A stretch of 24,654 bases of DNA from a virus (lineage: Duplodnaviria > Heunggongvirae > Uroviricota > Caudoviricetes), in IMG/VR virus record IMGVR_UViG_3300045988_113752, positions 1-24,654 of that record; one strand, given 5' to 3'. Positions 2,543 through 24,654 of this stretch are shown here, in pieces. How positions within the stretch are numbered: the stretch's first letter is position 1; each line of letters begins with the position of its first letter. The notes below the pieces were generated by a model. That model searched no databases. It had not been told where the DNA came from and saw nothing but the letters and a program-made list of their open reading frames with translations. Made by a program: the position numbers and the translations under genes.

Positions 2543-3147
2543 TGGCCTCTGTAGTAGAGATCTGCAATCGTGCGCTGTCCAATATTGGCAATAGCCGCAG
2601 CATTAACAGCCTGACGGAAGCCAGCAAGGAAGCGGGGGAATGTTCGCTGCACTTTGAGGCCTGCCGTGATGCTGTGCTTTCTGATTTTGACTGGAACTTT
2701 GCTACCAAACGCGTGGCGCTTGCAGATACGAACAATCCACCGCCTGACTGGGAATATGCGTACCAGTACCCGTCCGATTGTCTGCGCATTACTGAAATTA
2801 TGCTTCCTGGTGTACGCAATCCAACAGCAGCAATGCGCGTTCAGTACGAAGTTGGTGCAGACACCAACGGAACAGGAAAGTTGATCTACACAGACCAGCC
2901 GCAGGCATGGCTCAAGTATGTATCTCGCGTTACAGATGTGAACATGTTTGATGCCATTTTTATGGAGGCGTTGGCCTGGCGTCTTGCGGCAGCTATTAAC
3001 ATGGCGCTGACTGGGAATGCAGACCTCGGTACGTTTGCCCTCAATATGTACAATCGCGTGATTCTTAGTGCTGGCTCGCATAGCCAGAATGAATCACAGG
3101 AACCACTGCCACCGGTTGACGAGTTTACCATTGCGAGGTTGTCCTGA
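2542..3147 (+). CDS. Tail tubular protein A-like (gp11-like adaptor), putative
   Basis: 201 aa; start overlaps the previous stop (TAATG). Immediately precedes a large gp12-like gene. Size and position match T7-type tail tubular protein A. Confidence 0.45.
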   Translation: MASVVEICNRALSNIGNSRSINSLTEASKEAGECSLHFEACRDAVLSDFDWNFATKRVALADTNNPPPDWEYAYQYPSDCLRITEIMLPGVRNPTAAMRVQYEVGADTNGTGKLIYTDQPQAWLKYVSRVTDVNMFDAIFMEALAWRLAAAINMALTGNADLGTFALNMYNRVILSAGSHSQNESQEPLPPVDEFTIARLS

Positions 3148-5618
3148 TGGCTATCAGTTGGATCCAGCCCAGCTTTGCCGGTGGTGAGATTGGACCGTCG
3201 TTGTACGGTCGTATCGACATGGCGAAGTACCAGGTGGCATTGCGCAAGTGCGATAACTTTATCGTGCGGCAGTATGGCGGCGTTGAGAATCGACCTGGTA
3301 CGCGTTTTGTCGGTGCCGCCAAATACCCAAATCGGAAATGCCGCCTGATCCCGTTCCAGTTCTCGACGGTTCAGACTTATGCTCTGGAGTTCGGACACCA
3401 GTACATGCGCGTTATCAAAGATGGTGCGTTGGTGCTGAACAGCAGCAATGTTATTTATGAAATTGCCACGCCATATACTGAAGCCGATCTGTTCCGAATT
3501 AAATTCACGCAAAGCGCCGACGTGCTTACGCTGGTTCACCCGGCATACCCGCCGAAAGAGTTGCGTCGCTATGCGCATGACAACTGGCAACTGGTTGATG
3601 TGGTAACGAAGAACGGGCCATTTGAAGATATCAATATTGACGAGTCAGTGACGGTTTATGCCAGCGCCAGCACCGGGACAATTACGTTAACGGCAAGCGC
3701 CTCTATTTTTGGCGCGGAGCAGGTAGGCAAATTGTTCTATCTGGAACAGCCAGCAGTGGATTCAGTGCCGGTATGGGAAACCAGTAAGAGTACGTCGATT
3801 GGCGATATTCGCCGTGCAGACAGTAACTACTATCGCGCCGTTACAGCAGGCAAAACTGGTACTTTGCGCCCTTCGCATACAGAAGGCACATCATGGGATG
3901 GCTGGGGCGGATCCGGTGATGATGATACTGGCATTGAGTGGGAGTATCTGCACAGTGGGTTTGGCATTGCCCGTATCACTGCTGTAAACGGCACTACTGC
4001 AACTGCCGAGGTGATTTCCTATATCCCTTCGCAGGTCGTTGGCGAGGATAATGCCAGCTATAAATGGGCTAAATATGCCTGGAACAGTGTTAATGGTTAT
4101 CCTGGCACTGTTGTTTATTATCAACAACGTCTTTACTTCGCCGCATCGACTGCGTTTCCTCAGACTATCTGGGCCAGCCGTACCGGGGATTATAAGGATT
4201 TTGGCAAAAGCAATCCTACGCAGGATAACGACAGAATTATCTACACCTATGCCGGGCGTCAGGTTAATGAGATCCGCCACCTGATTGATGTCGGTTCGCT
4301 GGTGGCACTGACTTCCGGAGGTGAGTACGTCATCACCGGCGACCAGAACAAAGTGTTAACCCCATCATCATTTGCATTCAGCTCTCAGGGATCAAATGGC
4401 TCGAGCAATGTCCCACCAATTGCCGTGGCGAATATTGCTCTGTTCGTCCAGGAGAAAGGCAGTGTTGTCCGTGATCTGGCCTACTCATTCGATGTTGACG
4501 GCTATCAGGGGAACGACCTGACCATCCTTGCCAATCATCTTTTTCAGAAGCACAGCATTGTTGACTGGTGCTTCTCTATTGTCCCTTACTCCAGCGCCTT
4601 CTGCATTCGTGATGACGGTAAATTACTGGTGATGACCTATTTGCGTGATCAGCAGGTTTTTGCATGGGCACCACAATCCAGTACCGGAAAATATGAAAGC
4701 ACATGCAGTATCAGCGAAGGAAATGAAGATGCGGTGTATTTCGTCGTTAACCGAACCGTTAACGGGCAAACAGTGAGATACATCGAGCGACTGTCCAGCC
4801 GTTTATTTACCAGCGATGAAGATGCTTTCTTTGTTGATTCTGGCCTTAGCTATGATGGAAGAAATACGTCTGACAGAACGATGACCATCACTGGTGGTTC
4901 TGGCGAATGGGATTATCGCGCGGAATATACAATCAGTGTTTCTGGTGGTGCGTACTTCACCAGTAGTGATGTCGGCGCGCAACTACAGTTCCCTTATGTC
5001 GGAACTGATCCTGATACTGGCGATGAAGTGTCAAAAGAATTACGTTGCGACATTATTTCTGTAACCAGCAATACCGCTGTAGTGGTTCGCGCTAACAGGA
5101 ACGTCCCGCCATCCCTCAGGAATGTGGCCACCACGAACTGGCAGATGGCGCGCCGGACATTTGGAGGCCTGTCTCATCTTGAAGGCCAGACCGTAAACAT
5201 TCTCTCTGATGCGAACGTGGAGCCACAGAAAGTGGTTTCCGGAGGTGCCGTCACGCTGGAATCACCGGGAGCTGTTGTGCACATCGGCCTGCCAATAACT
5301 GCTGAATTCGAAACACTGGATATCAACATTAACGGACAGGAAACGCTGCTGGACAAAAAACAGGTGATCCCGTCCGTTACTCTGGTTGTGAATGCCAGTC
5401 GCGGCATCTGGGCGACTACGCCCGGCGGTAAATGGTACGAATATCCACAGCGTGAATTCGAGTTCTACGATGATCCTGTTGATGATGCTACCGGAAAAGT
5501 AGAAGTGAAACTGGACAGTAACTGGGGCAAAAACGGACGTGTAAAAATCCGTCAGCTTGATCCGTTGCCGCTGTCTGTTCTTGCCGTTATTCCTCGCCTT
5601 ACTGTTGGGGGATTCTGA
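3147..5618 (+). CDS. Tail tubular protein B-like (gp12-like nozzle), putative
   Basis: 823 aa; start overlaps the previous stop (TGATG). The N-terminal pattern (GGEIGPSLYGRID...RKCDNF...RPGTRF) resembles the T7 gp12 family as I recall it. Size matches. Confidence 0.55.
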   Translation: MAISWIQPSFAGGEIGPSLYGRIDMAKYQVALRKCDNFIVRQYGGVENRPGTRFVGAAKYPNRKCRLIPFQFSTVQTYALEFGHQYMRVIKDGALVLNSSNVIYEIATPYTEADLFRIKFTQSADVLTLVHPAYPPKELRRYAHDNWQLVDVVTKNGPFEDINIDESVTVYASASTGTITLTASASIFGAEQVGKLFYLEQPAVDSVPVWETSKSTSIGDIRRADSNYYRAVTAGKTGTLRPSHTEGTSWDGWGGSGDDDTGIEWEYLHSGFGIARITAVNGTTATAEVISYIPSQVVGEDNASYKWAKYAWNSVNGYPGTVVYYQQRLYFAASTAFPQTIWASRTGDYKDFGKSNPTQDNDRIIYTYAGRQVNEIRHLIDVGSLVALTSGGEYVITGDQNKVLTPSSFAFSSQGSNGSSNVPPIAVANIALFVQEKGSVVRDLAYSFDVDGYQGNDLTILANHLFQKHSIVDWCFSIVPYSSAFCIRDDGKLLVMTYLRDQQVFAWAPQSSTGKYESTCSISEGNEDAVYFVVNRTVNGQTVRYIERLSSRLFTSDEDAFFVDSGLSYDGRNTSDRTMTITGGSGEWDYRAEYTISVSGGAYFTSSDVGAQLQFPYVGTDPDTGDEVSKELRCDIISVTSNTAVVVRANRNVPPSLRNVATTNWQMARRTFGGLSHLEGQTVNILSDANVEPQKVVSGGAVTLESPGAVVHIGLPITAEFETLDININGQETLLDKKQVIPSVTLVVNASRGIWATTPGGKWYEYPQREFEFYDDPVDDATGKVEVKLDSNWGKNGRVKIRQLDPLPLSVLAVIPRLTVGGF

Positions 5619-13743: not shown

Positions 13744-13814
13744 AACAGCGAAGCCCCACGGTGGCCAGACCGTCAGGGCTTCAGTATCGTAAAACTACGT
13801 ATAGGAATTAACGA
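13742..13814 (-). ncRNA. Candidate sar-like antisense RNA covering the antirepressor RBS/start
   Basis: Minus-strand promoter TTGATA-N17-TATACT (plus coordinates 13849-13844 and 13826-13821) fires antisense across the ant RBS (13802-13805) and ATG (13816). A strong hairpin (13750-13782) is followed on the minus strand by GCUGUUUUA. Predicted length is ~70 nt. Confidence 0.4.
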
Positions 13815-16698: not shown

Positions 16699-17011
16699 AG
16701 CGATCACCTTTGTAGTTAGGTTAATCACCACCGCTGAGACCAATCAGATGGTGGTGAACTGTGCAGAGTTGGTCTTACCGGCTACAAAGGAACCCGGCGC
16801 ACCTTTCGGTGCCCCCACACAGCCCACCATAGAATAGGTGCGCTTTACACATAAAAAAACCGCTTATGCGGCATATGTGCCTCTGTAGTAATCCGGGAGA
16901 CCAATCCCGGCACTGGATTTTGCCAGTGCCCGATTACTATGGCACAAGAGGAGTGCAATGTAAATTTACCGAAAAGGTAAATATAAGCACTCCTATTGGT
17001 AATTTCAAAAC

Positions 17012-17345: not shown

Positions 17346-17362
17346 ATTACCTGAAAGGTAAT
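17346..17362. promoter_or_regulatory. Perfect palindrome ATTACCT-gaa-AGGTAAT upstream of the tailspike gene
   Basis: 7-bp arms with 3-nt spacer, immediately downstream of TTGCAA (17340-17345), about 105 nt upstream of the tailspike ATG. Confidence 0.3.
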
Positions 17363-17465
17363 ATCTATTCATATTCACAGTCTTTCTATCCATATATGGT
17401 TTTTTGGGTAATAGAATAACCAGATATGCGGCGCAACGGGTGCTGCGACTATCTGGAGATTTAAC

Positions 17466-19766
17466 ATGACGGTCTCAACCGAAGTTGACCACAACGAATA
17501 CACAGGTAACGGCGTTACGACATCATTTCCGTATACCTTCCGTATTTTCAAAAAATCCGACCTGGTTGTTCAGGTGTCTGACCTTAACGGTAACGTTACA
17601 AAACTAGTGCTGGATGCTGGTTATACGGTAACAGGGGCGGGAACTTATAGTGGCGGTGCAGTGGTTCTTCCGTCGCCGCTTGCTGCTGGCTGGCGAATCA
17701 CGATAGAGCGTGTGCTTGATGTGGTGCAGGAGACTGATCTTCGCAATCAGGGAAAATTTTTCCCCGAAGTTCATGAGGATGCATTTGACTACCTGACGAT
17801 GCTGATCCAGCGATGTTTTGGGTGGTTCAGACGTGCATTGATGAAACCATCTTTGCTTGCAAAATATTACGATGCAAAGCAAAACAGAATATCTAACCTT
17901 GCCGATCCATCACTTGAGCAGGACGCTGTAAATAATCGCTCAATGCGTAATTATGTCGATGCTGCAATCGCCGGAGTTATTGGTGGTTTTGGTTGGTTTA
18001 TTCAGTATGGTTCTGGAGCAGTATACCGAACGTTCCAGGATAAGATGAGAGACACCGTTAGTGTTCGCGATTTTGGGGCAAAAGGCGATGGTATAACAGA
18101 TGATACATCTGCATTGATTCTGGCTGCAGAATATGCACGAGAATCATCCAGAACATTACGAGCGGAAGGTAATTTTATTATTACGGAGACATTAAATCTT
18201 CGTAATGTCAGCCTCGAAATGACCAATGCTGTTTTTACCATATCCCACTCAGGGATAGGGGTATTGCTTGGCGGGAATGCATCAAACCCTAACAACCCAA
18301 GACAAAACTTCGGAACGATTATCAGAAATTCTGGTATTTCATCTGAAACGACACCGGATATTCGTATTATCGGGGCAAAAGGGCAGCATATTAACATTGA
18401 GCGTTGCGACTACTTACAGTTATATGCAAACTCTGATGATTCAGTATATGAAACAGATTATTCTATAGCCTACTCAACCTTTAACCTGAAAAAGGTCGAT
18501 ACAATTCATTTTCTTGGTGTAGTTAGAGGTTGGATAAACGAAAACAAGTTTTACCTAAACAGGACAAATAATGTGATTATTGCTGATAATCCGTATTCAC
18601 ATAATCACAACAAGTTTTTTGGTGGAACGATGGAGAATACTGGGGTTATTGACATTCAGCGTGGTAATAATAATCATTTTTACGGACTCCGTTTTGAGCG
18701 CAGACCAGACAACCCAGATGACACACAAAGAATTAATTTTGGTAGTTATACGTGGAATAATTCTGTTCAGGCATCATGGCTTAGCTTTTCTGCATATACC
18801 AATGAACCATATAACCCAAACAATCTTGTAACTGTCACTGATAATGGTAATGGAAATGCTGTATATCATATTCAGGAAGAACTAACTAATGAAGTGTCGC
18901 TTTTTTCAGTGAGTGAGAAAACGCCATTTTTATCAAGCGTTAATATGGGAAGTTCAGATACACCTGATTATGTTACAGATGTAAAAAGTGTGCGAAATTT
19001 AATTCATCTTGTTAATGGTAGTTTTGCTATTGGACGTAACTTCAGGACAATTTGGGAATCAGGTGATATAAGCGTCAGGAATGGCGATGTGTTTGCATTT
19101 ACTTCTGATGTCAGCGCATTCCGCATAAGGGTTTATGGAATTGATGAGAATGGCAGTGTTATTACAAATGAGCCTGAAGGGATTGGTTTTCCAGGGGCTT
19201 CATGGGATGATGAAAACAGTCGTTTTACTACCCAGTCTAACATCGGTAATGCAAAGTTTAGGATAACCGACAAAGGAGGAGTAAAATCAATAAGGGTTGT
19301 CATTCTGTCGGGTGGTAATACATCTGGAATTACCTTCAAATATATCAGATTTACCGGAAGATATTATAAGGATAGTTCTGCGTATCCTCGAAGAAATATG
19401 GATGATCATAATATCCACAGGTCTGGTGCTGTGATGTTTAATTCATCACTTGATGTCAAAATGGAAAATATAGCATCAGGTGTTACCTGTTATGTAAAAG
19501 ATGCATCTGATGTTAAGGTTAATATATTAAGAAATAGATACGTTGTTAAATCGGTGTCCGGGAATACTATATATGTGCGTAACCAGGATGAAATTTCATA
19601 TTCTGGTCCTTATGATGACTTTAAGGTTGCATATACTAGCGGGGCAAAAAATATGATTTCTGATGTTTCAGGAATTTCATCTAATGCAATAAAGTTATCA
19701 GGTAGTGTTCCTTCTGAAATATCAGAAGGAAGCAATATTGATTTGATTAAAATATTAACGAAGTAG
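17466..19766 (+). CDS. Tailspike protein: gp17-like N-terminal anchor plus pectate-lyase-type beta-helix depolymerase domain
   Basis: 766 aa with GGAG RBS. The N-terminal ~150 aa follow the pattern of T7 gp17-type tail fibre N-termini. The central DFGAKGDGITDDTSAL is the hallmark of pectate-lyase-fold tailspikes. The C-terminal half is AT-rich. Confidence 0.8.
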   Translation: MTVSTEVDHNEYTGNGVTTSFPYTFRIFKKSDLVVQVSDLNGNVTKLVLDAGYTVTGAGTYSGGAVVLPSPLAAGWRITIERVLDVVQETDLRNQGKFFPEVHEDAFDYLTMLIQRCFGWFRRALMKPSLLAKYYDAKQNRISNLADPSLEQDAVNNRSMRNYVDAAIAGVIGGFGWFIQYGSGAVYRTFQDKMRDTVSVRDFGAKGDGITDDTSALILAAEYARESSRTLRAEGNFIITETLNLRNVSLEMTNAVFTISHSGIGVLLGGNASNPNNPRQNFGTIIRNSGISSETTPDIRIIGAKGQHINIERCDYLQLYANSDDSVYETDYSIAYSTFNLKKVDTIHFLGVVRGWINENKFYLNRTNNVIIADNPYSHNHNKFFGGTMENTGVIDIQRGNNNHFYGLRFERRPDNPDDTQRINFGSYTWNNSVQASWLSFSAYTNEPYNPNNLVTVTDNGNGNAVYHIQEELTNEVSLFSVSEKTPFLSSVNMGSSDTPDYVTDVKSVRNLIHLVNGSFAIGRNFRTIWESGDISVRNGDVFAFTSDVSAFRIRVYGIDENGSVITNEPEGIGFPGASWDDENSRFTTQSNIGNAKFRITDKGGVKSIRVVILSGGNTSGITFKYIRFTGRYYKDSSAYPRRNMDDHNIHRSGAVMFNSSLDVKMENIASGVTCYVKDASDVKVNILRNRYVVKSVSGNTIYVRNQDEISYSGPYDDFKVAYTSGAKNMISDVSGISSNAIKLSGSVPSEISEGSNIDLIKILTK

Positions 19767-19776
19767 GATTAAATGC

Positions 19777-20091
19777 ATGGAATATAGAACCGGACATTTT
19801 ATTGCAATGGATATAACACCTTTCCTTCATGCGCTTTGTGCTGTGGCCGCACAGATACTGATTGGCCTTTTTACCGGAAACTGGGCTTACGGAGCGATAG
19901 CTGGTTGTACGTTCTTCATTGCGCGTGAACACACCCAGGCAGAATATCGCTGGATTGAAATGTTCGGGCATGGCAAGCGTATGAATATGCCGTGGTGGGG
20001 CGGTTTTGATCCGCGCGTATGGGATGTTGGAAGCCTGTTTGACTTTGTTGTTCCTGTTACTGTTTGTTTTGGTGTTTATTTCTATATTTGA
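19777..20091 (+). CDS. Small hydrophobic membrane protein (hypothetical)
   Basis: 104 aa with aggat 8 nt upstream, starting 11 nt after the tailspike stop. Two to three predicted TM segments and a Trp-rich motif (MPWWGGFDPRVWD). Confidence 0.5.
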   Translation: MEYRTGHFIAMDITPFLHALCAVAAQILIGLFTGNWAYGAIAGCTFFIAREHTQAEYRWIEMFGHGKRMNMPWWGGFDPRVWDVGSLFDFVVPVTVCFGVYFYI

Positions 20092-20313
20092 CTGCTACCG
20101 CGCCATCAAATGGCGCGGAATTCAACTAAGCCTCTATATTTTAAATCATTTCTGTACTGCAATCTCTTCAGAGTTATGTAAAAGGCAAGCCTTATTATCG
20201 ACATGAAAGGAAGGGGATTGACAATGCATGGGTAACAAAAAACCATAAATGGTTTATCATGCGTAATGCCTTTACTATTCAGGAGGTAGTTATGCATATA
20301 AACGGTGGAAAAC

Positions 20314-20718
20314 ATGTCAGCTCAACTAACCAGTGAAACTTTAAATCAGTGGCTTAGCATGAGTTCTCTGGCGGCGGTGATAGCAGGAGTTCCTCCTGAG
20401 GTTGCTTTGGGGGCTTTGGCTGGGGCGGTAATTTTTGTTACCTCTGCGGTAGAGTATCCTATTCGTCGTCGTGTACTCTTGTCGATGCTTAGCTTTCTCT
20501 GCGGCCTTCTTTTTTATAAACCAGCAGCATCAATTCTTATCGGCATAGCCAGCCTGATCCCTACCATCACGCAGGACTCTTTTGAAAAAGGGATTGTTTT
20601 CTCAGCTGGCGCATTCGTGTCAGCAATTGTTGCTGTGCGTATTGGTATATGGCTCTATCACCGTTCCGATAATCCACGCGAGTTAATTCCGGGGAGAAAA
20701 GACGATGGTAACGCATGA
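20314..20718 (+). CDS. Multi-TM membrane protein, first gene of lysis cassette (holin/antiholin candidate)
   Basis: Four hydrophobic segments. The track ORF starts at GTG 20305; ATG 20314 is preferred. Its end overlaps the start of the next membrane-protein gene. Confidence 0.45.
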   Translation: MSAQLTSETLNQWLSMSSLAAVIAGVPPEVALGALAGAVIFVTSAVEYPIRRRVLLSMLSFLCGLLFYKPAASILIGIASLIPTITQDSFEKGIVFSAGAFVSAIVAVRIGIWLYHRSDNPRELIPGRKDDGNA

Positions 20719-21013
20719 GTTTTTTTTGCTTATCACCAATGCAGTTATTTGTACTGGCATAGCAATTCGCGTTGTCACATTCCGGCGTAACGGCTCTCAA
20801 CATCGAAGATGGGGAGGGTGGCTTGCTTATTTCCTTATTGTTGCTGCGGCCAGTATTCCTGTTCGTGTCGTCTATGCAATCTGGTTACGCACGCCAATGG
20901 CTGTGGATTTATCTGAGGTCATTATCAACGCTGTCATGCTTGCCGCGGTTATTAAAACACGCGGTAACGTTGTTCAGATTTTCAAAATATCGAGGTCTAA
21001 ACATGGAGATTAA
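20705..21013 (+). CDS. Holin (putative, three TM segments)
   Basis: 102 aa with GGAG RBS, three hydrophobic helices and a charged C-terminus. Overlaps the endolysin start. Confidence 0.55.
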
Positions 21014-21632
21014 ACAATTCCAGCGAGCTGCTGGTATTAGCGAGGCGCTGGCCGCTCGCTGGTTCTCGCATATAACTTCTGCGATGAAAGAGTTTGGTAT
21101 CAGCAAGGCAGAAGATCAGGCAATGTTTATTGCTCAAGTTGGGCATGAGTCTGGGGGGTTCACCAGGTTGCAGGAGAATTTCAACTACAGCGTTACCGGA
21201 CTGGTGAGCTTTGTCCGGACTGGACGCCTCACCCAGGGACAGGCTAATGCACTGGGGCGCCGCGTTGGTGAACCACCATTGCCACTTGAGCGCCAGCGCG
21301 CGATCGCAAATCTGGTATACAGCAAACGCATGGGTAACAATGCTCCCGGCGATGGCTGGAATTACCGTGGGCGCGGGCTTATCCAGATTACCGGTTTGAA
21401 TAACTATCGTGACTGCGGAAACGGTCTGAAAGTTGACCTGCTGGAGAATCCTGAACTGCTGGCACAGGACGAATACGCGGCTCGTAGCGCGGCCTGGTTC
21501 TTCTCCAGCAAAGGCTGCATGAAGTATACCGGAGATATTGTACGTGTAACTCTGATTATCAATGGTGGCAGGAACGGCATCGACGACCGGCGCGCGCGAT
21601 ACATCACTGCCAGTAAGGTGCTGGCGGTATGA
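21003..21632 (+). CDS. Endolysin, glycoside hydrolase family 19 (chitinase-like lysozyme)
   Basis: Internal ATG of track ORF 20772..21632. [12 protein letters not shown] and [16 protein letters not shown] match the GH19 catalytic signature regions. Confidence 0.8.
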
Positions 21633-22111
21633 TCTGGGCATTCGCAAAAGCATACTGGAAACAGTTGGTTATCATGGCGATGCTTGCTGTTCTGGTCATA
21701 TCAGGAGTTGTCGCCTGGAATGCACACGGCAGTCGCCAGTACGATGCCGGGTATGCTCAGGCGGAAGAAGACCGCAAAGCCGAAGAAGACAAAGTTCGTC
21801 AGCACTACGAACAGGAGAAATCGATCAATGAACGTGAAGCGCAGCAGAGGATCGACCAGGCGCGCAATGATGCTCTTGATGCTGCCGCTCGCGCTGGCCG
21901 GTTGCAGCAACAGCTCGTTGCCATCCGTGAGCAGCTCAGGCACTATAACGCCATTGTCGGCGCTGGGACGTCAGCCGCAGACACCGGAGTTTTGCTTGCC
22001 GACGTGCTCAGTAAATCTCTCGAGAGAAACAGACAACTGGCAGAGTATGCTGACCGGGCAGCCGAAGCCGGAAGAGTCTGTGAAAAACAGTACGACACCC
22101 TGACCAGATAG
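21629..22111 (+). CDS. Rz-like i-spanin
   Basis: Start overlaps the endolysin stop (ATGA). N-terminal TM helix followed by a charged, coiled-coil-like periplasmic domain. Confidence 0.7.
21828..22103 (+). CDS. Rz1-like o-spanin lipoprotein, embedded in Rz in the +1 frame
   Basis: [26 protein letters not shown] has a basic n-region, hydrophobic core and LAGC lipobox. GGAG lies 10 nt upstream. The mature part is Pro/Ser-rich. Confidence 0.6.
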   Translation: MNVKRSRGSTRRAMMLLMLPLALAGCSNSSLPSVSSSGTITPLSALGRQPQTPEFCLPTCSVNLSRETDNWQSMLTGQPKPEESVKNSTTP

Positions 22112-22218
22112 CATGGCATTTTTCATGGTACTGATTTCCGGTGACGGTATATAAAACGGTACGAGGAAAATTGAGCTTTGGAAAAATGTTATCACTCAAT
22201 TGGTTATGGTGTCCGTAA

Positions 22219-22236
22219 ATAATTGAGTGGGAATGA
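22219..22236 (+). other. guaA: Remnant 3' end of guaA (ATA ATT GAG TGG GAA TGA = IIEWE-stop): probable prophage att junction
   Basis: E. coli GuaA ends ...PPATIEWE as I recall it. Here only the last codons are present and the frame is closed by TAA two codons upstream, so the upstream DNA is not guaA. A host-like terminator follows. Confidence 0.45.
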
Positions 22237-22262
22237 TTTTGATCCCTGCACTATGAATGAAC

Positions 22263-22292
22263 AAAACCCTCTGTTACTACAGAGGGTTTTTT
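22263..22292. terminator. Bidirectional intrinsic terminator (AAAA-CCCTCTG-ttacta-CAGAGGG-TTTTTT)
   Basis: Perfect 7-bp stem flanked by an A-run and a T-run, between convergent genes. Confidence 0.7.
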
Positions 22293-22330
22293 ATCTTCAA
22301 GAATTATAGGCTTGAAGTTACTTACATCGA

Positions 22331-22870
22331 TTAATTAAACCAGCTGTCCGATTTGTTCTCTTCTGCTTTGCCCACGCTTTTCATCAGATCGCGACCGCCT
22401 TCAGTCATATTTCTGTTGGCGTCAGCTTCAGATTGCACCACATCGGTTTGCGCAGCTTTGTGCTTCAGTTCCTGATCGATAAATTCGTTTTCTCGCTTAA
22501 CGCGGGCTTCTTCTTTTGCCAGCGCCAGTTTTTGTTTCTGAATCTCTAAGCTGTGTAGCTCATCTTCATAACTTTGATCGCGTTTTTTGTCCGCAGAGGC
22601 TTCGGCGTCCAGTTTATCCTGACGAGCTTTCTTATTTGCTGCTGCCGTTGCCGCTCTTTTGTTAGCGGCGGCCTGGGCATTTGCGCGACGTTGCTTCTCT
22701 TGCTGGATTTCCCTGTTGCGCTCCGCGACCCATTCGTCATGCTGCCTTTGCTCTTCATTTTTACCTTGCTGTTCAGCTTCTGCTACAGCAGAGAGTTGAT
22801 CCTGCAATGATGAGGCGATAGCCGGATAGCTTAAGGAGGCCAAGATGGCGCAAAGAAAAACTTTCTTCAT
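22331..22870 (-). CDS. yfgI: Periplasmic coiled-coil protein, YfgI-like (host gene)
   Basis: 179 aa with signal peptide MKKVFLCAILASLSYPAIA, then a highly charged Gln/Ala/Lys/Glu-rich sequence. Length and neighbourhood match E. coli yfgI as recalled. Confidence 0.5.
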   Translation of the reverse strand: MKKVFLCAILASLSYPAIASSLQDQLSAVAEAEQQGKNEEQRQHDEWVAERNREIQQEKQRRANAQAAANKRAATAAANKKARQDKLDAEASADKKRDQSYEDELHSLEIQKQKLALAKEEARVKRENEFIDQELKHKAAQTDVVQSEADANRNMTEGGRDLMKSVGKAEENKSDSWFN

Positions 22871-22885
22871 GACTCCTCCTGATTA

Positions 22886-23404
22886 TTAGCTCTTTTCAGG
22901 ACATTTAGTATTTGGCTGAATACGCGTTTCGTTATACGTTGTGGTAATAACAACGGCTAAACCTGTCGTAAACTGGCACTCTTTACCCACCTGGGTAGAG
23001 GTATACACTTTGGTGCCTTCCTTATATGTTAAAGAAACACCTTCCACTAAGGTTTTATCATTCACCATAGAACCCGCTGCCGCGCCTACAGCTCCGCCGC
23101 CAACTGCCCCTGCCGTCGTTCCGGAATTGCTGCCAGAACCGACGTTGTGGCCGATAACACCGCCAGCGACTGCGCCAATAAGCGCGCCGAAGGCTTGTGC
23201 GTTCCGTTTATTTTGGGAGTTGTCTACGGCAACTTTTGCGGGAAGAATGGAAATAATATTAACGGTTTTAGTTTCTTGTTTGGTATTCAGTTGATCGGTT
23301 TGATAAACATCGGCGGCATGATCGTCAGCATTTGACTGGCATCCTGCCAGAGTGAATGACGCTAACATTGCCACAGGCAGAAGACATTTTTTAAATTTCA
23401 TCAC
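22886..23404 (-). CDS. yfgH: Outer-membrane lipoprotein with glycine-zipper region, YfgH-like (host gene)
   Basis: 172 aa with LAGC lipobox and a Gly/Ala-rich segment (GALIGAVAGGVIGHNVG...GAVGGGAVGAAAG), similar in architecture to SlyB/Pcp-type lipoproteins. Confidence 0.5.
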   Translation of the reverse strand: MMKFKKCLLPVAMLASFTLAGCQSNADDHAADVYQTDQLNTKQETKTVNIISILPAKVAVDNSQNKRNAQAFGALIGAVAGGVIGHNVGSGSNSGTTAGAVGGGAVGAAAGSMVNDKTLVEGVSLTYKEGTKVYTSTQVGKECQFTTGLAVVITTTYNETRIQPNTKCPEKS

Positions 23405-23714
23405 TATTCCTTGTTATACACATTACGAAAAATAAGACATTTAAGATCATCAAAAGAGGAAAGTAAATGTATTGCGTATAAAGGGATAGATTAAATTTAT
23501 TAAAATTCACGCAGGGAATAATTTATAAAAATATATCATTACAACATATATATTAATTTTATATTTATTTCGCAGCCAAACAGGATAAACATCAGTCAGG
23601 ACAAAGACGTAAAATTTAAGATGAAAGAATATCTGCCGCTTTGATAATTCCAAAGAGCAAAAGCATCCGACAGCGAAGTGCCGTTAGGTTCTGTGAAAGT
23701 GGAGAAGGTAACCG

Positions 23715-23906
23715 CTAACGTTGTACCGGTGATTCGACGGAGAGTGTGGATTGCTGAGCTTCTTTTTTGCTCTGATGGTGCTGCCAGGCACCGACGGACG
23801 AGTAGATAAAACGGCCAAAGAAGAAGATAAAGCTGATGAGCAGTACGATACGGGTCATGCGACTGTTAAATCGGTGTCGTTTTCGCATACTGGTTGCCTG
23901 ACTCAC
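23715..23906 (-). CDS. yfgG: Small single-TM membrane protein, YfgG-like (host gene)
   Basis: 63 aa with a basic N-terminus and one hydrophobic helix (IVLLISFIFFFGRFIY). Size and position match yfgG. Confidence 0.45.
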   Translation of the reverse strand: MSQATSMRKRHRFNSRMTRIVLLISFIFFFGRFIYSSVGAWQHHQSKKEAQQSTLSVESPVQR

Positions 23907-24257
23907 AAAAGGTTCCTTGAAGTATGTCCCACGCTGTGGACGGTACTTACATTAAGGCACAACAGGACAAAATGGTCAATTCTTCGTTATGTAAAAAAGC
24001 GTCAGTGGATACATATTTTAATGTTATGGAAGTTAATTTAATTATTTACAATGATGATGTAATAATGATGAATTAACATGATAAACGTAATAATTCATTA
24101 ATCAGGGTTATTTTGTTTGATATATATCAATTGGAACTTTCATATGACACTTAGAATCAATGCTCTCTATAGTGATGAATAATCATCATTCGAAGTCAGG
24201 TGGGATGCCTGTCTGAATACACCTCCTTCAGGATGTGGGGGATTCTGCTGAGCATCT

Positions 24258-24654
24258 ATGAAACTGAATGCAACTTATATAAAAATACGTGATAAATGGT
24301 GGGGGCTTCCGCTGTTCCTGCCTTCTTTAATCTTGCCCATTTTCGCCCACATTAATACTTTCGCGCATATTTCTTCCGGTGAGGTTTTTCTCTTTTATCT
24401 GCCTTTGGCACTGATGATCAGCATGATGATGTTTTTCAGCTGGGCGGCATTGCCAGGGATCACCTTAGGGATTTTTGTCCGCAAATATGCAGAGCTGGGT
24501 TTTTACGAAACGCTCTCATTAACGGCTAATTTTATTATCATTATCATTCTCTGTTGGGGCGGTTACAGGGTCTTTACTGGATTTGCCCCTATATTTCCAG
24601 ACATCTGTTATCACTTAACCCATTACAAGCCCGCTGCCGCAGATATTCCCGTGG
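24258..24654 (+). CDS. pdeF: N-terminal fragment of a multi-TM membrane protein, probably the sensor domain of PdeF/YfgF (continues past window end)
   Basis: Open frame from ATG 24258 to the window end (132 codons) with several hydrophobic segments. Not in the ORF track because it has no stop. Assignment rests on synteny recalled from E. coli. Confidence 0.4.
   Translation, partial: MKLNATYIKIRDKWWGLPLFLPSLILPIFAHINTFAHISSGEVFLFYLPLALMISMMMFFSWAALPGITLGIFVRKYAELGFYETLSLTANFIIIIILCWGGYRVFTGFAPIFPDICYHLTHYKPAAADIPV

Follow-up and report, generated by a model that had tools for sequence, protein, structure and literature searches.

A putative composite control leader, with a conserved mini-ORF and a plus-strand hairpin, upstream of the lysis cassette of epsilon15-like prophages

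The window considered in this study, i.e., the whole stretch of 24,654 nucleotides (nt) of the virus record IMGVR_UViG_3300045988_113752, is the late half of an epsilon15-like (Uetakevirus) Escherichia coli prophage, and its lysis cassette begins at position 20314 with the gene of a gp23-like membrane protein (here gp23). In our evaluation, there is an even chance that the approximately 110 nt before this cassette form a composite control leader, consisting of a DNA box, an internal promoter, a fold-back hairpin, and a short upstream open reading frame (mini-ORF) that couples translation to that of gp23. Its directly observed parts are much firmer than the model as a whole: the start, the Shine-Dalgarno sequence, and the stop of the mini-ORF are conserved, a covarying hairpin is present on the plus strand, the box recurs at other loci, and the genes of the cassette overlap one another. 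The comparison was carried out on about 200 related loci, gathered from genomes and viral contigs with gp23-like proteins of three lineages, from which 115 distinct leaders, spanning -92 to +6, were aligned with MAFFT.

An earlier reading of the region (the original prediction) had pointed out a TTGACA hexamer (20218 to 20223), an inverted repeat (20241 to 20254), an AGGAGG (20281 to 20286), an ATG (20292), the gp23 ATG (20314), and a GTG (20305), and all these positions are correct. In particular, the 14-codon ORF that it had noticed at ATG 20292 overlaps the start of the first membrane-protein gene in another frame, and this arrangement is conserved across relatives. The mini-ORF (MHINGGKHVSSTNQ, 20292 to 20336, plus strand) terminates with TGA at 20334 to 20336 and overlaps codons 1 to 8 of gp23. 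Its Shine-Dalgarno sequence, AGGAGG, is located 5 nt before the ATG on the same strand and was likewise correctly recognized as the strongest ribosome-binding site of the region, its predicted pairing with the 16S 3' end reaching -11.6 kcal/mol versus -4.0 to -8.1 kcal/mol for the lysis and tailspike genes (gp23, -5.1; gp24, -8.1; endolysin, -6.6; Rz, -4.0; tailspike, -6.4). An AGGAGG followed by an ATG after 4 to 8 nt occurs just twice on the plus strand of the 24.6-kb window. The Shine-Dalgarno sequence of gp23, GGTGG (20304 to 20308, plus strand), is weak (-5.1 kcal/mol here; mean of the relatives, -5.5 kcal/mol) and lies within the mini-ORF, at the foot of the hairpin described below.

The same geometry is found in the relatives, where the mini-ORF ATG is placed at -23 (95 leaders) or, in the lineage of the window, at -22 (12 leaders) from the gp23 ATG, that is, in 107 of the 115 distinct leaders. 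The mini-ORF Shine-Dalgarno sequence, which appears in the relatives as TAAGGAGG, AGGAGGT, or AAGGGGG, pairs with a mean of -11.35 kcal/mol, compared to -5.51 kcal/mol for the GGTGG of gp23, and in 111 of 112 leaders it pairs more strongly than the latter. Furthermore, the mini-ORF encloses both the Shine-Dalgarno sequence and the AUG of gp23 in 110 of the 112 leaders having it. Scanning with a pattern that represents the 3' portion of the leader returned 117 further contigs, every one of which carries a gp23 homologue exactly 23 nt downstream. When epsilon15 is compared with phages sharing 68 to 72% identity in the gp23 coding sequence, the leader proves to be 88 to 91% identical and thus more conserved than the gene; the leader of the window is only 66% identical to that of epsilon15, yet hairpin, Shine-Dalgarno sequence, ATG, and overlap are all kept.

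In the -23 register, the mini-ORF consists of 12 codons, and 97 of 120 leaders have its stop at +13, where it is formed by codons 5 and 6 of gp23. Where gp23 codon 5 encodes Leu, it is CTA (105 leaders) or TTA (6 leaders) in 111 of 111 cases, CTA being the rarest Leu codon in E. coli; where it encodes Val, Ile, or Met, the sequence reads GTA-A, ATA-A, or ATG-A, so that a TAA or TGA stays at +13. The stop is kept in 68 of the 70 distinct -23 leaders, with the third positions of the adjacent codons free to vary. Since this codon 5 pattern is hard to explain otherwise, it argues for selection on the stop in the frame of the mini-ORF.

The encoded peptide behaves differently. In the -23 lineage, the peptide commonly begins with the six residues MHSKRW, the conservation of KRW being explained by the fact that its codons are at the same time the Shine-Dalgarno sequence of gp23; in the lineage of the window, a 1-nt deletion turns MHSKRW into MHINGG and shifts the stop to +20, and in phiV10 the mini-ORF has six codons, with the stop 5 nt before the gp23 ATG. 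The leader of the plaque-forming phage EC.W1-9 is identical to that of the window, and thus the variant of the window works. From these sequences, the mini-ORF appears to be conserved as a translation unit and not as a peptide. Accordingly, as regards the proposal of translational coupling or leader-peptide control made in the original prediction, the former emerges as the best reading in light of the conserved start, strong Shine-Dalgarno sequence, and stop, while a control by the peptide or by attenuation finds no support, the peptide being lineage variable and no terminator being present. Eight leaders lack the mini-ORF ATG, and four of these (a type with many members) carry AGGAG, with a pairing of -7.4 kcal/mol, in place of the GGTGG of gp23, which looks like a compensation.

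A second element, absent from the original prediction, is a hairpin (20252 to 20303, plus strand) that was identified in the minimum-free-energy fold, its arms being further supported by the covariation on the 115 leaders and the strand asymmetry. Its 5' arm (20252 to 20273) is followed by the loop ACUAUUCA (20274 to 20281) and by a 3' arm (20282 to 20303) that holds most of the AGGAGG, the AUG of the mini-ORF, and its first four codons. In the window, the hairpin has a folding energy of -25.2 kcal/mol (z = -2.2), and across the leaders the stem measures 20 to 25 bp, corresponding to about two helical turns, with energies from -22 to -35 kcal/mol, the latter being reached in epsilon15. On the 115 leaders, the stem comprises 20 pairs with 90.5% of the cells paired, and changes occur on both sides in 12 pairs; 72 compensatory cells were counted versus 14.8 +/- 3.6 in shuffles, none of 500 of which reached the observed value, and in a control in which the partner was slid by 1 to 3 columns the pairing dropped to 27 to 50%.

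The cells of the stem include 407 G.U versus 25 A.C combinations, the pairing is 73.6% if read on the other strand, and the mean folding energy is -24.1 kcal/mol for the plus strand versus -10.9 kcal/mol for the minus strand, with the plus strand being more stable in 115 of 115 leaders. It follows from this asymmetry that the structure belongs to the plus-strand RNA. Moreover, the ATG side of the stem is almost invariant, while its 5' partners change from T to C and from A to G, and hence the ATG is constrained by more than pairing. A conserved and covarying plus-strand hairpin can thus bury the start of the mini-ORF. The predicted unpaired probability of the mini-ORF AUG in the window is 0.00 in a read-through transcript versus 0.68 in a transcript starting in the loop, and the corresponding overall values are 0.03 and 0.51. 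For the GGTGG of gp23, the predicted unpaired probability is 0.22 to 0.51, varying with the transcript. Rfam 15 holds no family for the hairpin and gave only a chance match (E = 1.4), far under the gathering score.

Upstream of the hairpin and partly within it lies the sequence that had been described as a perfect 14-bp palindrome. The two 6-bp arms of AACCAT-aa-ATGGTT (20241 to 20254) are indeed present, and they become 7 bp long if extended to 20240 to 20255, but the AA center is not self-complementary, and the repeat is not perfect. Inverted repeats of the 6+2+6 type occur 9 times in the window versus 6.4 in shuffled sequences (4 versus 1.6 for the 7-bp version), and TTGACA, with 12 occurrences counting both strands, is about as frequent as expected by chance; therefore, neither element is remarkable alone. 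However, the palindrome is contained in a 16-nt box (AAACCATAAATGGTTT in the window, 20240 to 20255, with no strand assigned) with the consensus TAT(C/T)CATAT(A/G)TGGTTT, whose CC and GG are almost invariant across the 115 leaders. The dyad symmetry is moderate, since 79.7% of the cells are paired versus 77.5% in shuffles. An RNA hairpin formed by the palindrome was considered and rejected, as only the C/G at the second pair is invariant, the third pair is broken in 27 of the 115 leaders, and the pairing is near the shuffle level.

A DNA site is the preferred interpretation of the palindrome, given that copies of the box without a pairing partner are present at two further promoters. One of these copies is located upstream of the tailspike gene (17346 to 17417, plus strand), where an operator (ATTACCTGAAAGGTAAT, 17346 to 17362) is followed by the box (TATCCATATATGGTTT, 17387 to 17402) and by GGTAATAGAAT (17407 to 17417). 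In about 50 distinct relatives, the layout of the tailspike leader is the same, with operator, 27 nt, box, four bases, and an invariant GGTAATAGAAT always following in this order, and the operator, ATTACC-N5-GGTAAT, is of the type named repressor sites in the epsilon15 record. A third operator-plus-box copy was noticed upstream of the head operon (gp3), at 2931 to 3013 in epsilon15 and 3252 to 3335 in phiV10, the box being AAATCATATGTGGTTA, followed by AATT and GGTAATAATTT, and a box-like sequence is also found between gp39 and gp40 on the other strand. Judging from this recurrence, the box is probably a late-promoter element marking the lysis, tailspike, and head promoters and a candidate protein-binding site; the original proposal that the palindrome might be bound by a protein is therefore sensible, as it forms the core of the box. 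A candidate for the late regulator is phiV10 p55/epsilon15 gp49, which has no Pfam domain and matches only PHROG 536, "transcriptional regulator."

The leader of the tailspike gene displays two further features. A conserved hairpin (17420 to 17456) lies just before the Shine-Dalgarno sequence, and a 12-codon ORF, from ATG 17426 to TAA 17462 to 17464, ends 1 nt before the tailspike ATG. The latter ORF probably occurs by chance, as suggested by its lack of a Shine-Dalgarno sequence and its absence in Klebsiella-type relatives.

As far as the promoter is concerned, the TTGACA at 20218 to 20223 (plus strand) is lineage specific and is not a supported -35 element. In fact, this position reads TTGACA, TTGACG, TTTACG, or ATGACA in the sub-lineage of the window only, and the hexamer is absent in epsilon15, phiV10, and Klebsiella-type relatives; a sigma-70 promoter with this -35 was rejected also because the AACCAT located 17 bp downstream matches the -10 consensus at 3 of 6 positions and was not called in the scan. 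The role of TTGACA as a promoter element thus finds no confirmation, lacking both conservation beyond the sub-lineage and an acceptable -10. The best sigma-70-like match in the window is candidate P-a, GTAACA-17 bp-TATCAT (20232 to 20260, plus strand), which scores 9 of 12 and has the palindrome filling its spacer. A second candidate, P-b, is represented by a -10-like hexamer position (20262 to 20267, plus strand) occupied by CGTAAT in the window but by TATGAT or TATAAT in most relatives, with column counts over the 115 leaders of T98, A100, T109, G97, A105, and T110. The conserved block of the relatives consists of TTA(T/A)CC, a 17-bp spacer beginning with ATATATGGTTT, and TATGAT, so that the -10-like hexamer falls within the 5' arm of the hairpin, and in phiV10 this promoter, TTAACC-17-TATAAT, scores 10 of 12. 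Seven nucleotides downstream of the P-b hexamer, in the loop, a conserved A (105 of 115 leaders; 20274 in the window) follows a pyrimidine. No acceptable match to CRP or IHF sites was recognized by eye in the conserved block.

On these bases, we infer where transcription starts, that translation is coupled, and that read-through is silenced, and the composite model is completed in this way as follows. A phage regulator would bind the box, where the -35 element and the spacer would be, directly upstream of the -10-like hexamer, and the internal late promoter would start transcription in the hairpin loop, as suggested by the shared box and the location of the -10, giving an mRNA without the 5' arm that begins about 18 to 22 nt before the mini-ORF. 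On this mRNA, ribosomes would load at the strong Shine-Dalgarno sequence of the mini-ORF, cross the weak site and the start codon of gp23, terminate 13 to 20 nt inside gp23, and then re-initiate or leave the site open, so that gp23 is made. Through the overlapping stops and starts, translation would be propagated to gp24, the endolysin, and the spanins; with translation passed along the overlapping genes, the output of the cassette would therefore be set by the mini-ORF. Conversely, read-through transcripts from the tailspike or moron genes would carry the 5' arm, which would pair over 20 to 25 bp with the Shine-Dalgarno sequence and the AUG of the mini-ORF; such transcripts would be translationally silent for lysis and likely substrates of RNase III. 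The silencing of read-through would make biological sense because the lysogen expresses the conversion or moron genes that occupy the slot upstream of the cassette.

It is also possible to hypothesize, tentatively and with the balance leaning against it, that a single inverted repeat serves as both a two-state safety catch and a dosing device. The -10 element (TAT...) and the AUG of the mini-ORF pair with each other, so that the firing of the promoter would decide translatability, and re-initiation 13 nt into gp23 would set the amount of the first membrane protein and the timing of lysis.

Several observations weigh against the composite model. The P-b hexamer of the window, CGTAAT, is weak and has a G at the critical -11 position; the internal promoter of the window may be GTAACA-17-TATCAT, 6 nt upstream of P-b, or none; and scans of the epsilon15 and Klebsiella-type leaders gave no sigma-70-like site at the scan threshold. 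The -35 position fits the consensus poorly. Should transcription actually begin upstream, all transcripts would form the hairpin, and processing would be required before the mini-ORF could be used. The distance between the box and the -10 is ambiguous: with TAGAAT or TAATTT as the -10 of the tailspike and gp3 leaders, it deviates by 3 nt from that of the lysis leader. With respect to translation, coupling is suggested by geometry alone, and the position of the mini-ORF stop is not essential, as it varies from 5 nt before the gp23 ATG in phiV10 to 20 nt after it in the lineage of the window. Finally, RNAalifold run on the raw 115-sequence MAFFT alignment returned no consensus structure, and the stem was specified by hand from the same sequences and then tested by the pair counts and controls reported above.

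The hairpin lends itself to another interpretation, which we deem rather unlikely but which deserves serious consideration, namely, that it is an RNase III processing site in a long late transcript, the lysis genes being read through from the tailspike operon, with cleavage freeing the gp23 ribosome-binding site and the ATG and the Shine-Dalgarno-like run kept merely as parts of a stem. A plus-strand-specific stem of this length, reaching the above-mentioned -35 kcal/mol in epsilon15, is consistent with it, as is the upstream gene being on the same strand in the window and, according to a crude ORF scan, in most relatives, with no T-run terminator in between. Moreover, the GenBank record of epsilon15 annotates exactly this stretch (24755 to 24817) as an RNase III site, which is the sole support for cleavage. 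However, processing would leave unexplained the +13 stop held through amino acid changes of gp23, the invariant 3' (ATG) side of the stem as opposed to the variable 5' side, the Shine-Dalgarno spacing of the purine run, and the stronger gp23 Shine-Dalgarno sequence in leaders without the ATG; in addition, the upstream genes of epsilon15 and phiV10 are on the opposite strand, behind a terminator.

The geometry that suggests coupling would be the same if the mini-ORF acted as a brake, with heavy ribosome traffic occluding the gp23 start, keeping gp23 low relative to gp24 and thus tuning the timing of lysis: the Shine-Dalgarno sequence and AUG of gp23 are inside the mini-ORF in nearly all the leaders that have it (110 of 112), and the mini-ORF Shine-Dalgarno sequence is about twice as strong. 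We nevertheless consider such a brake improbable. Independent initiation at gp23 would be expected to be poor regardless, given its weak Shine-Dalgarno sequence at the foot of the stem; a conserved stop near the start is a hallmark of re-initiation and not of occlusion; and the lineages without the ATG have strengthened the gp23 Shine-Dalgarno sequence, which suggests that the mini-ORF supplies ribosomes and does not remove them.

Very little credit can be given to the literal form of the earlier model, i.e., a TTGACA promoter, a palindromic operator, and a regulatory leader peptide controlling the holin through its sequence or through stalling. All of its elements are present and MHSKRW is common in the -23 lineage, but TTGACA is neither conserved nor accompanied by a -10 partner, the KRW conservation is accounted for by the gp23 Shine-Dalgarno sequence, and the peptide becomes MHINGG through the 1-nt deletion in the very leader carried by the plaque-forming EC.W1-9. 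Furthermore, the scan returned no terminator-like site between 20230 and 20320, and the logic of alternative hairpins required for attenuation is missing: the hairpin precedes and includes the mini-ORF start and has no U-run, and a trpL-type attenuator was discarded because the leader ORF is not followed by a terminator hairpin with a U-run. Equally implausible is that the mini-ORF ATG is a vestigial start, ribosome bound and without a role, that remained from an older gene start when the 5' end was rearranged, because, even though the gene of a distant branch (type L198) starts directly after a hairpin with ATGCAT (Met-His), the first two codons of the mini-ORF, the start, Shine-Dalgarno sequence, and stop position are kept across leaders differing by up to 34%, and a compensating Shine-Dalgarno gain is seen where the ATG was lost.

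The arrangement envisaged by the composite model recalls, in its two halves, two known systems. The leader-peptide coupling of tap and repA in plasmid R1, reportedly described by Blomberg, Nordstrom, and Wagner in 1992, relies on a short, well-initiated upstream ORF terminating at or close to the beginning of the real gene, which has a poor ribosome-binding site beside a stable stem; in the lysis leader, too, the upstream ORF has an efficient site of its own and a nearby stop. The translation of the real gene depends in R1 on the ribosomes of the leader ORF, a dependence that would apply by analogy to gp23. In contrast to R1, no antisense RNA is evident in the lysis leader, the hairpin buries the start of the leader ORF itself and not the downstream site, and the stop of the mini-ORF lies 13 to 20 nt inside the gene and not at its start.

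The second system is the fold-back inhibition of IS10/Tn10, which is said to have been reported by Davis, Simons, and Kleckner in 1985. There, the native promoter is known to lie within the inverted repeat, as we propose for the internal start of the lysis leader, and the 5' arm is present solely in transcripts arriving from outside, in which it silences the translation start by pairing with it, so that a dangerous gene is shielded from read-through. Also in the lysis leader, the 3' arm of the inverted repeat covers a translation start and pairs on the mRNA strand. The differences consist in the gene concerned, a transposase there and a phage lysis cassette here, and in the buried start, which here is that of the mini-ORF and not that of the protein gene.

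Among lysis genes, the reference case is lambda S, where a dual-start motif with the sdi stem-loop and two in-frame starts gives holin and antiholin. What the lysis leader has in common with it is a structured RNA where the first lysis gene begins and a choice of start site, two features that in lambda influence holin function and lysis timing; different from lambda S, its upstream start is out of frame and yields a peptide of 12 to 14 residues, and its stem is much longer. A lambda-type dual-start holin/antiholin was therefore rejected, as ATG 20292 does not share the frame of gp23, which, upstream of the gp23 ATG, is closed by the TAA at -15 (20299 to 20301). The same stop, together with the lack of a slippery site, led to the rejection of a frameshift from the mini-ORF into gp23 giving an N-terminally extended antiholin. 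The GTG at 20305 would add Met-Glu-Asn to gp23, but it was not accepted as a start, since it lies inside the GGTGG and has no Shine-Dalgarno sequence of its own. RNase III sites are well known in phage leaders, such as the lambda N leader, sib, and the T7 R sites, with which the lysis hairpin shares a long, nearly perfect stem of at least 20 bp; the annotation in epsilon15 is, however, silent on the mini-ORF and the box, and the cleavage of the lysis leader is a prediction only.

That annotation is the only prior trace of the element, and coupling and fold-back, known in R1 and IS10, are not known to have been described for a lysis cassette. Full-text searches of the literature found no description of the mini-ORF, of the box, or of the late-gene regulator of this phage group. 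In the ZX5 paper, overexpression of the repressor is reported to abolish the holin and lysin mRNA.

The leader is widespread, occurring in Uetakevirus-like phages of Escherichia, Salmonella, Klebsiella, Citrobacter, and relatives. A 301-nt query comprising the leader and the 5' part of gp23 matches 333 of 5,426 complete E. coli genomes (about 6%), 83 of them over at least 80% of its length, and in the matching genomes only a "putative holin" is annotated, the leader being left without annotation. With regard to the protein, a first search for gp23 relatives gave only sequences with at least 80% identity, and an exhaustive search outlined a small family of 56 clusters.

The timing of lysis largely sets phage fitness, and a prophage must also hold its lysis genes off. 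Translational control of holins is known to operate through in-frame dual starts and small stem-loops, to which the lysis leader suggests adding an out-of-frame mini-ORF that feeds ribosomes. A promoter-dependent hairpin, if real, would shield the lysogen from read-through out of the neighboring conversion genes that it expresses, and the safety catch, if it proved true, would represent a principle of lysis control distinct from that of dual-start holins. Moreover, the 16-nt box offers an entry point to the late-gene regulator of these phages, and the elements of the leader may be usable in reporter-phage and engineering work on phiV10-type phages.

Two peculiarities of the gene start were noticed among the relatives. 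A group of viral contigs (L198 to L210) constitutes the distant branch mentioned above, with a 38% identical protein starting with MHED and an unrelated leader; in the 60 nt before the gp23-like start, this leader contains a 17-bp plus-strand hairpin with two G.U pairs that abuts the start codon, the 3' arm holding the GGUG Shine-Dalgarno sequence of the gene and the 5' arm a -10-like TAGCAT. In four other relatives (L014, L017, L040, and L053), an ATG that is in frame with gp23 and precedes its start by four codons has arisen at -12 through a C-to-T change (AAACGG to AAATGG); this ATG has no Shine-Dalgarno sequence of its own and is used by gene callers, resulting in a 138-residue product.

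The cassette itself lies in a region (20000 to 21700) that is 96% identical to phages EC.W1-9 and phiv142-3, 87% identical to phiV10, and 80% identical to epsilon15, and the order of the lysis genes is the same in the window, epsilon15, and phiV10. All of them are on the plus strand. The first, gp23 (20314 to 20718), matches Pfam Phage_holin_8 (E = 4e-12) and PHROG 198 (holin), and its counterparts in epsilon15 and phiV10 are annotated as three-transmembrane membrane proteins. It is followed by a gp24-like holin (20705 to 21013; Pfam Phage_holin_3_7, E = 2e-27; PHROG 217), whose start overlaps the gp23 stop by 14 nt, by an endolysin of the glycoside hydrolase 19 (GH19) type (21003 to 21632), whose start overlaps gp24 by 11 nt, and by an Rz-like i-spanin (21629 to 22111; Pfam DUF2514, E = 7e-43), whose start overlaps the endolysin stop (ATGA), so that all four main lysis genes overlap with their neighbors (gp23/gp24, gp24/endolysin, and endolysin/Rz). 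An Rz1-like o-spanin (21828 to 22103), with the lipobox LALAGC in its translation and corresponding genes in epsilon15 and phiV10, is embedded in Rz.

Upstream of the cassette, on the same strand, are the tailspike gene (17466 to 19766) and an ORF (19777 to 20091) encoding a 104-residue membrane protein of PHROG 1443, function unknown. Directly 3' of the latter, a GC-rich hairpin, CCGCGCCAT-caa-ATGGCGCGG (20098 to 20118), lacks a T-run and is not a canonical terminator; it stands alone between these genes and the cassette, where no T-run terminator was found. A minus-strand ORF of 69 amino acids (20106 to 20315) that overlaps the region was treated as spurious because it lies in nonconserved sequence.

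Downstream of Rz/Rz1 (22112 to 24654), the window contains minus-strand lipoprotein-like ORFs resembling host genes, in the place where phage genomes have the integrase, which indicates that the lysis cassette lies at the right end of the integrated prophage. Lastly, three Rfam matches at gathering score were obtained on the minus strand, to C4 antisense RNA (16747 to 16834), isrK (16853 to 16929), and sar RNA (13747 to 13814). These matches suggest that the block between the end of the tail genes (12358) and the tailspike gene, whose ORFs are mostly on the minus strand, harbors an antirepressor-control (immI-like) module.

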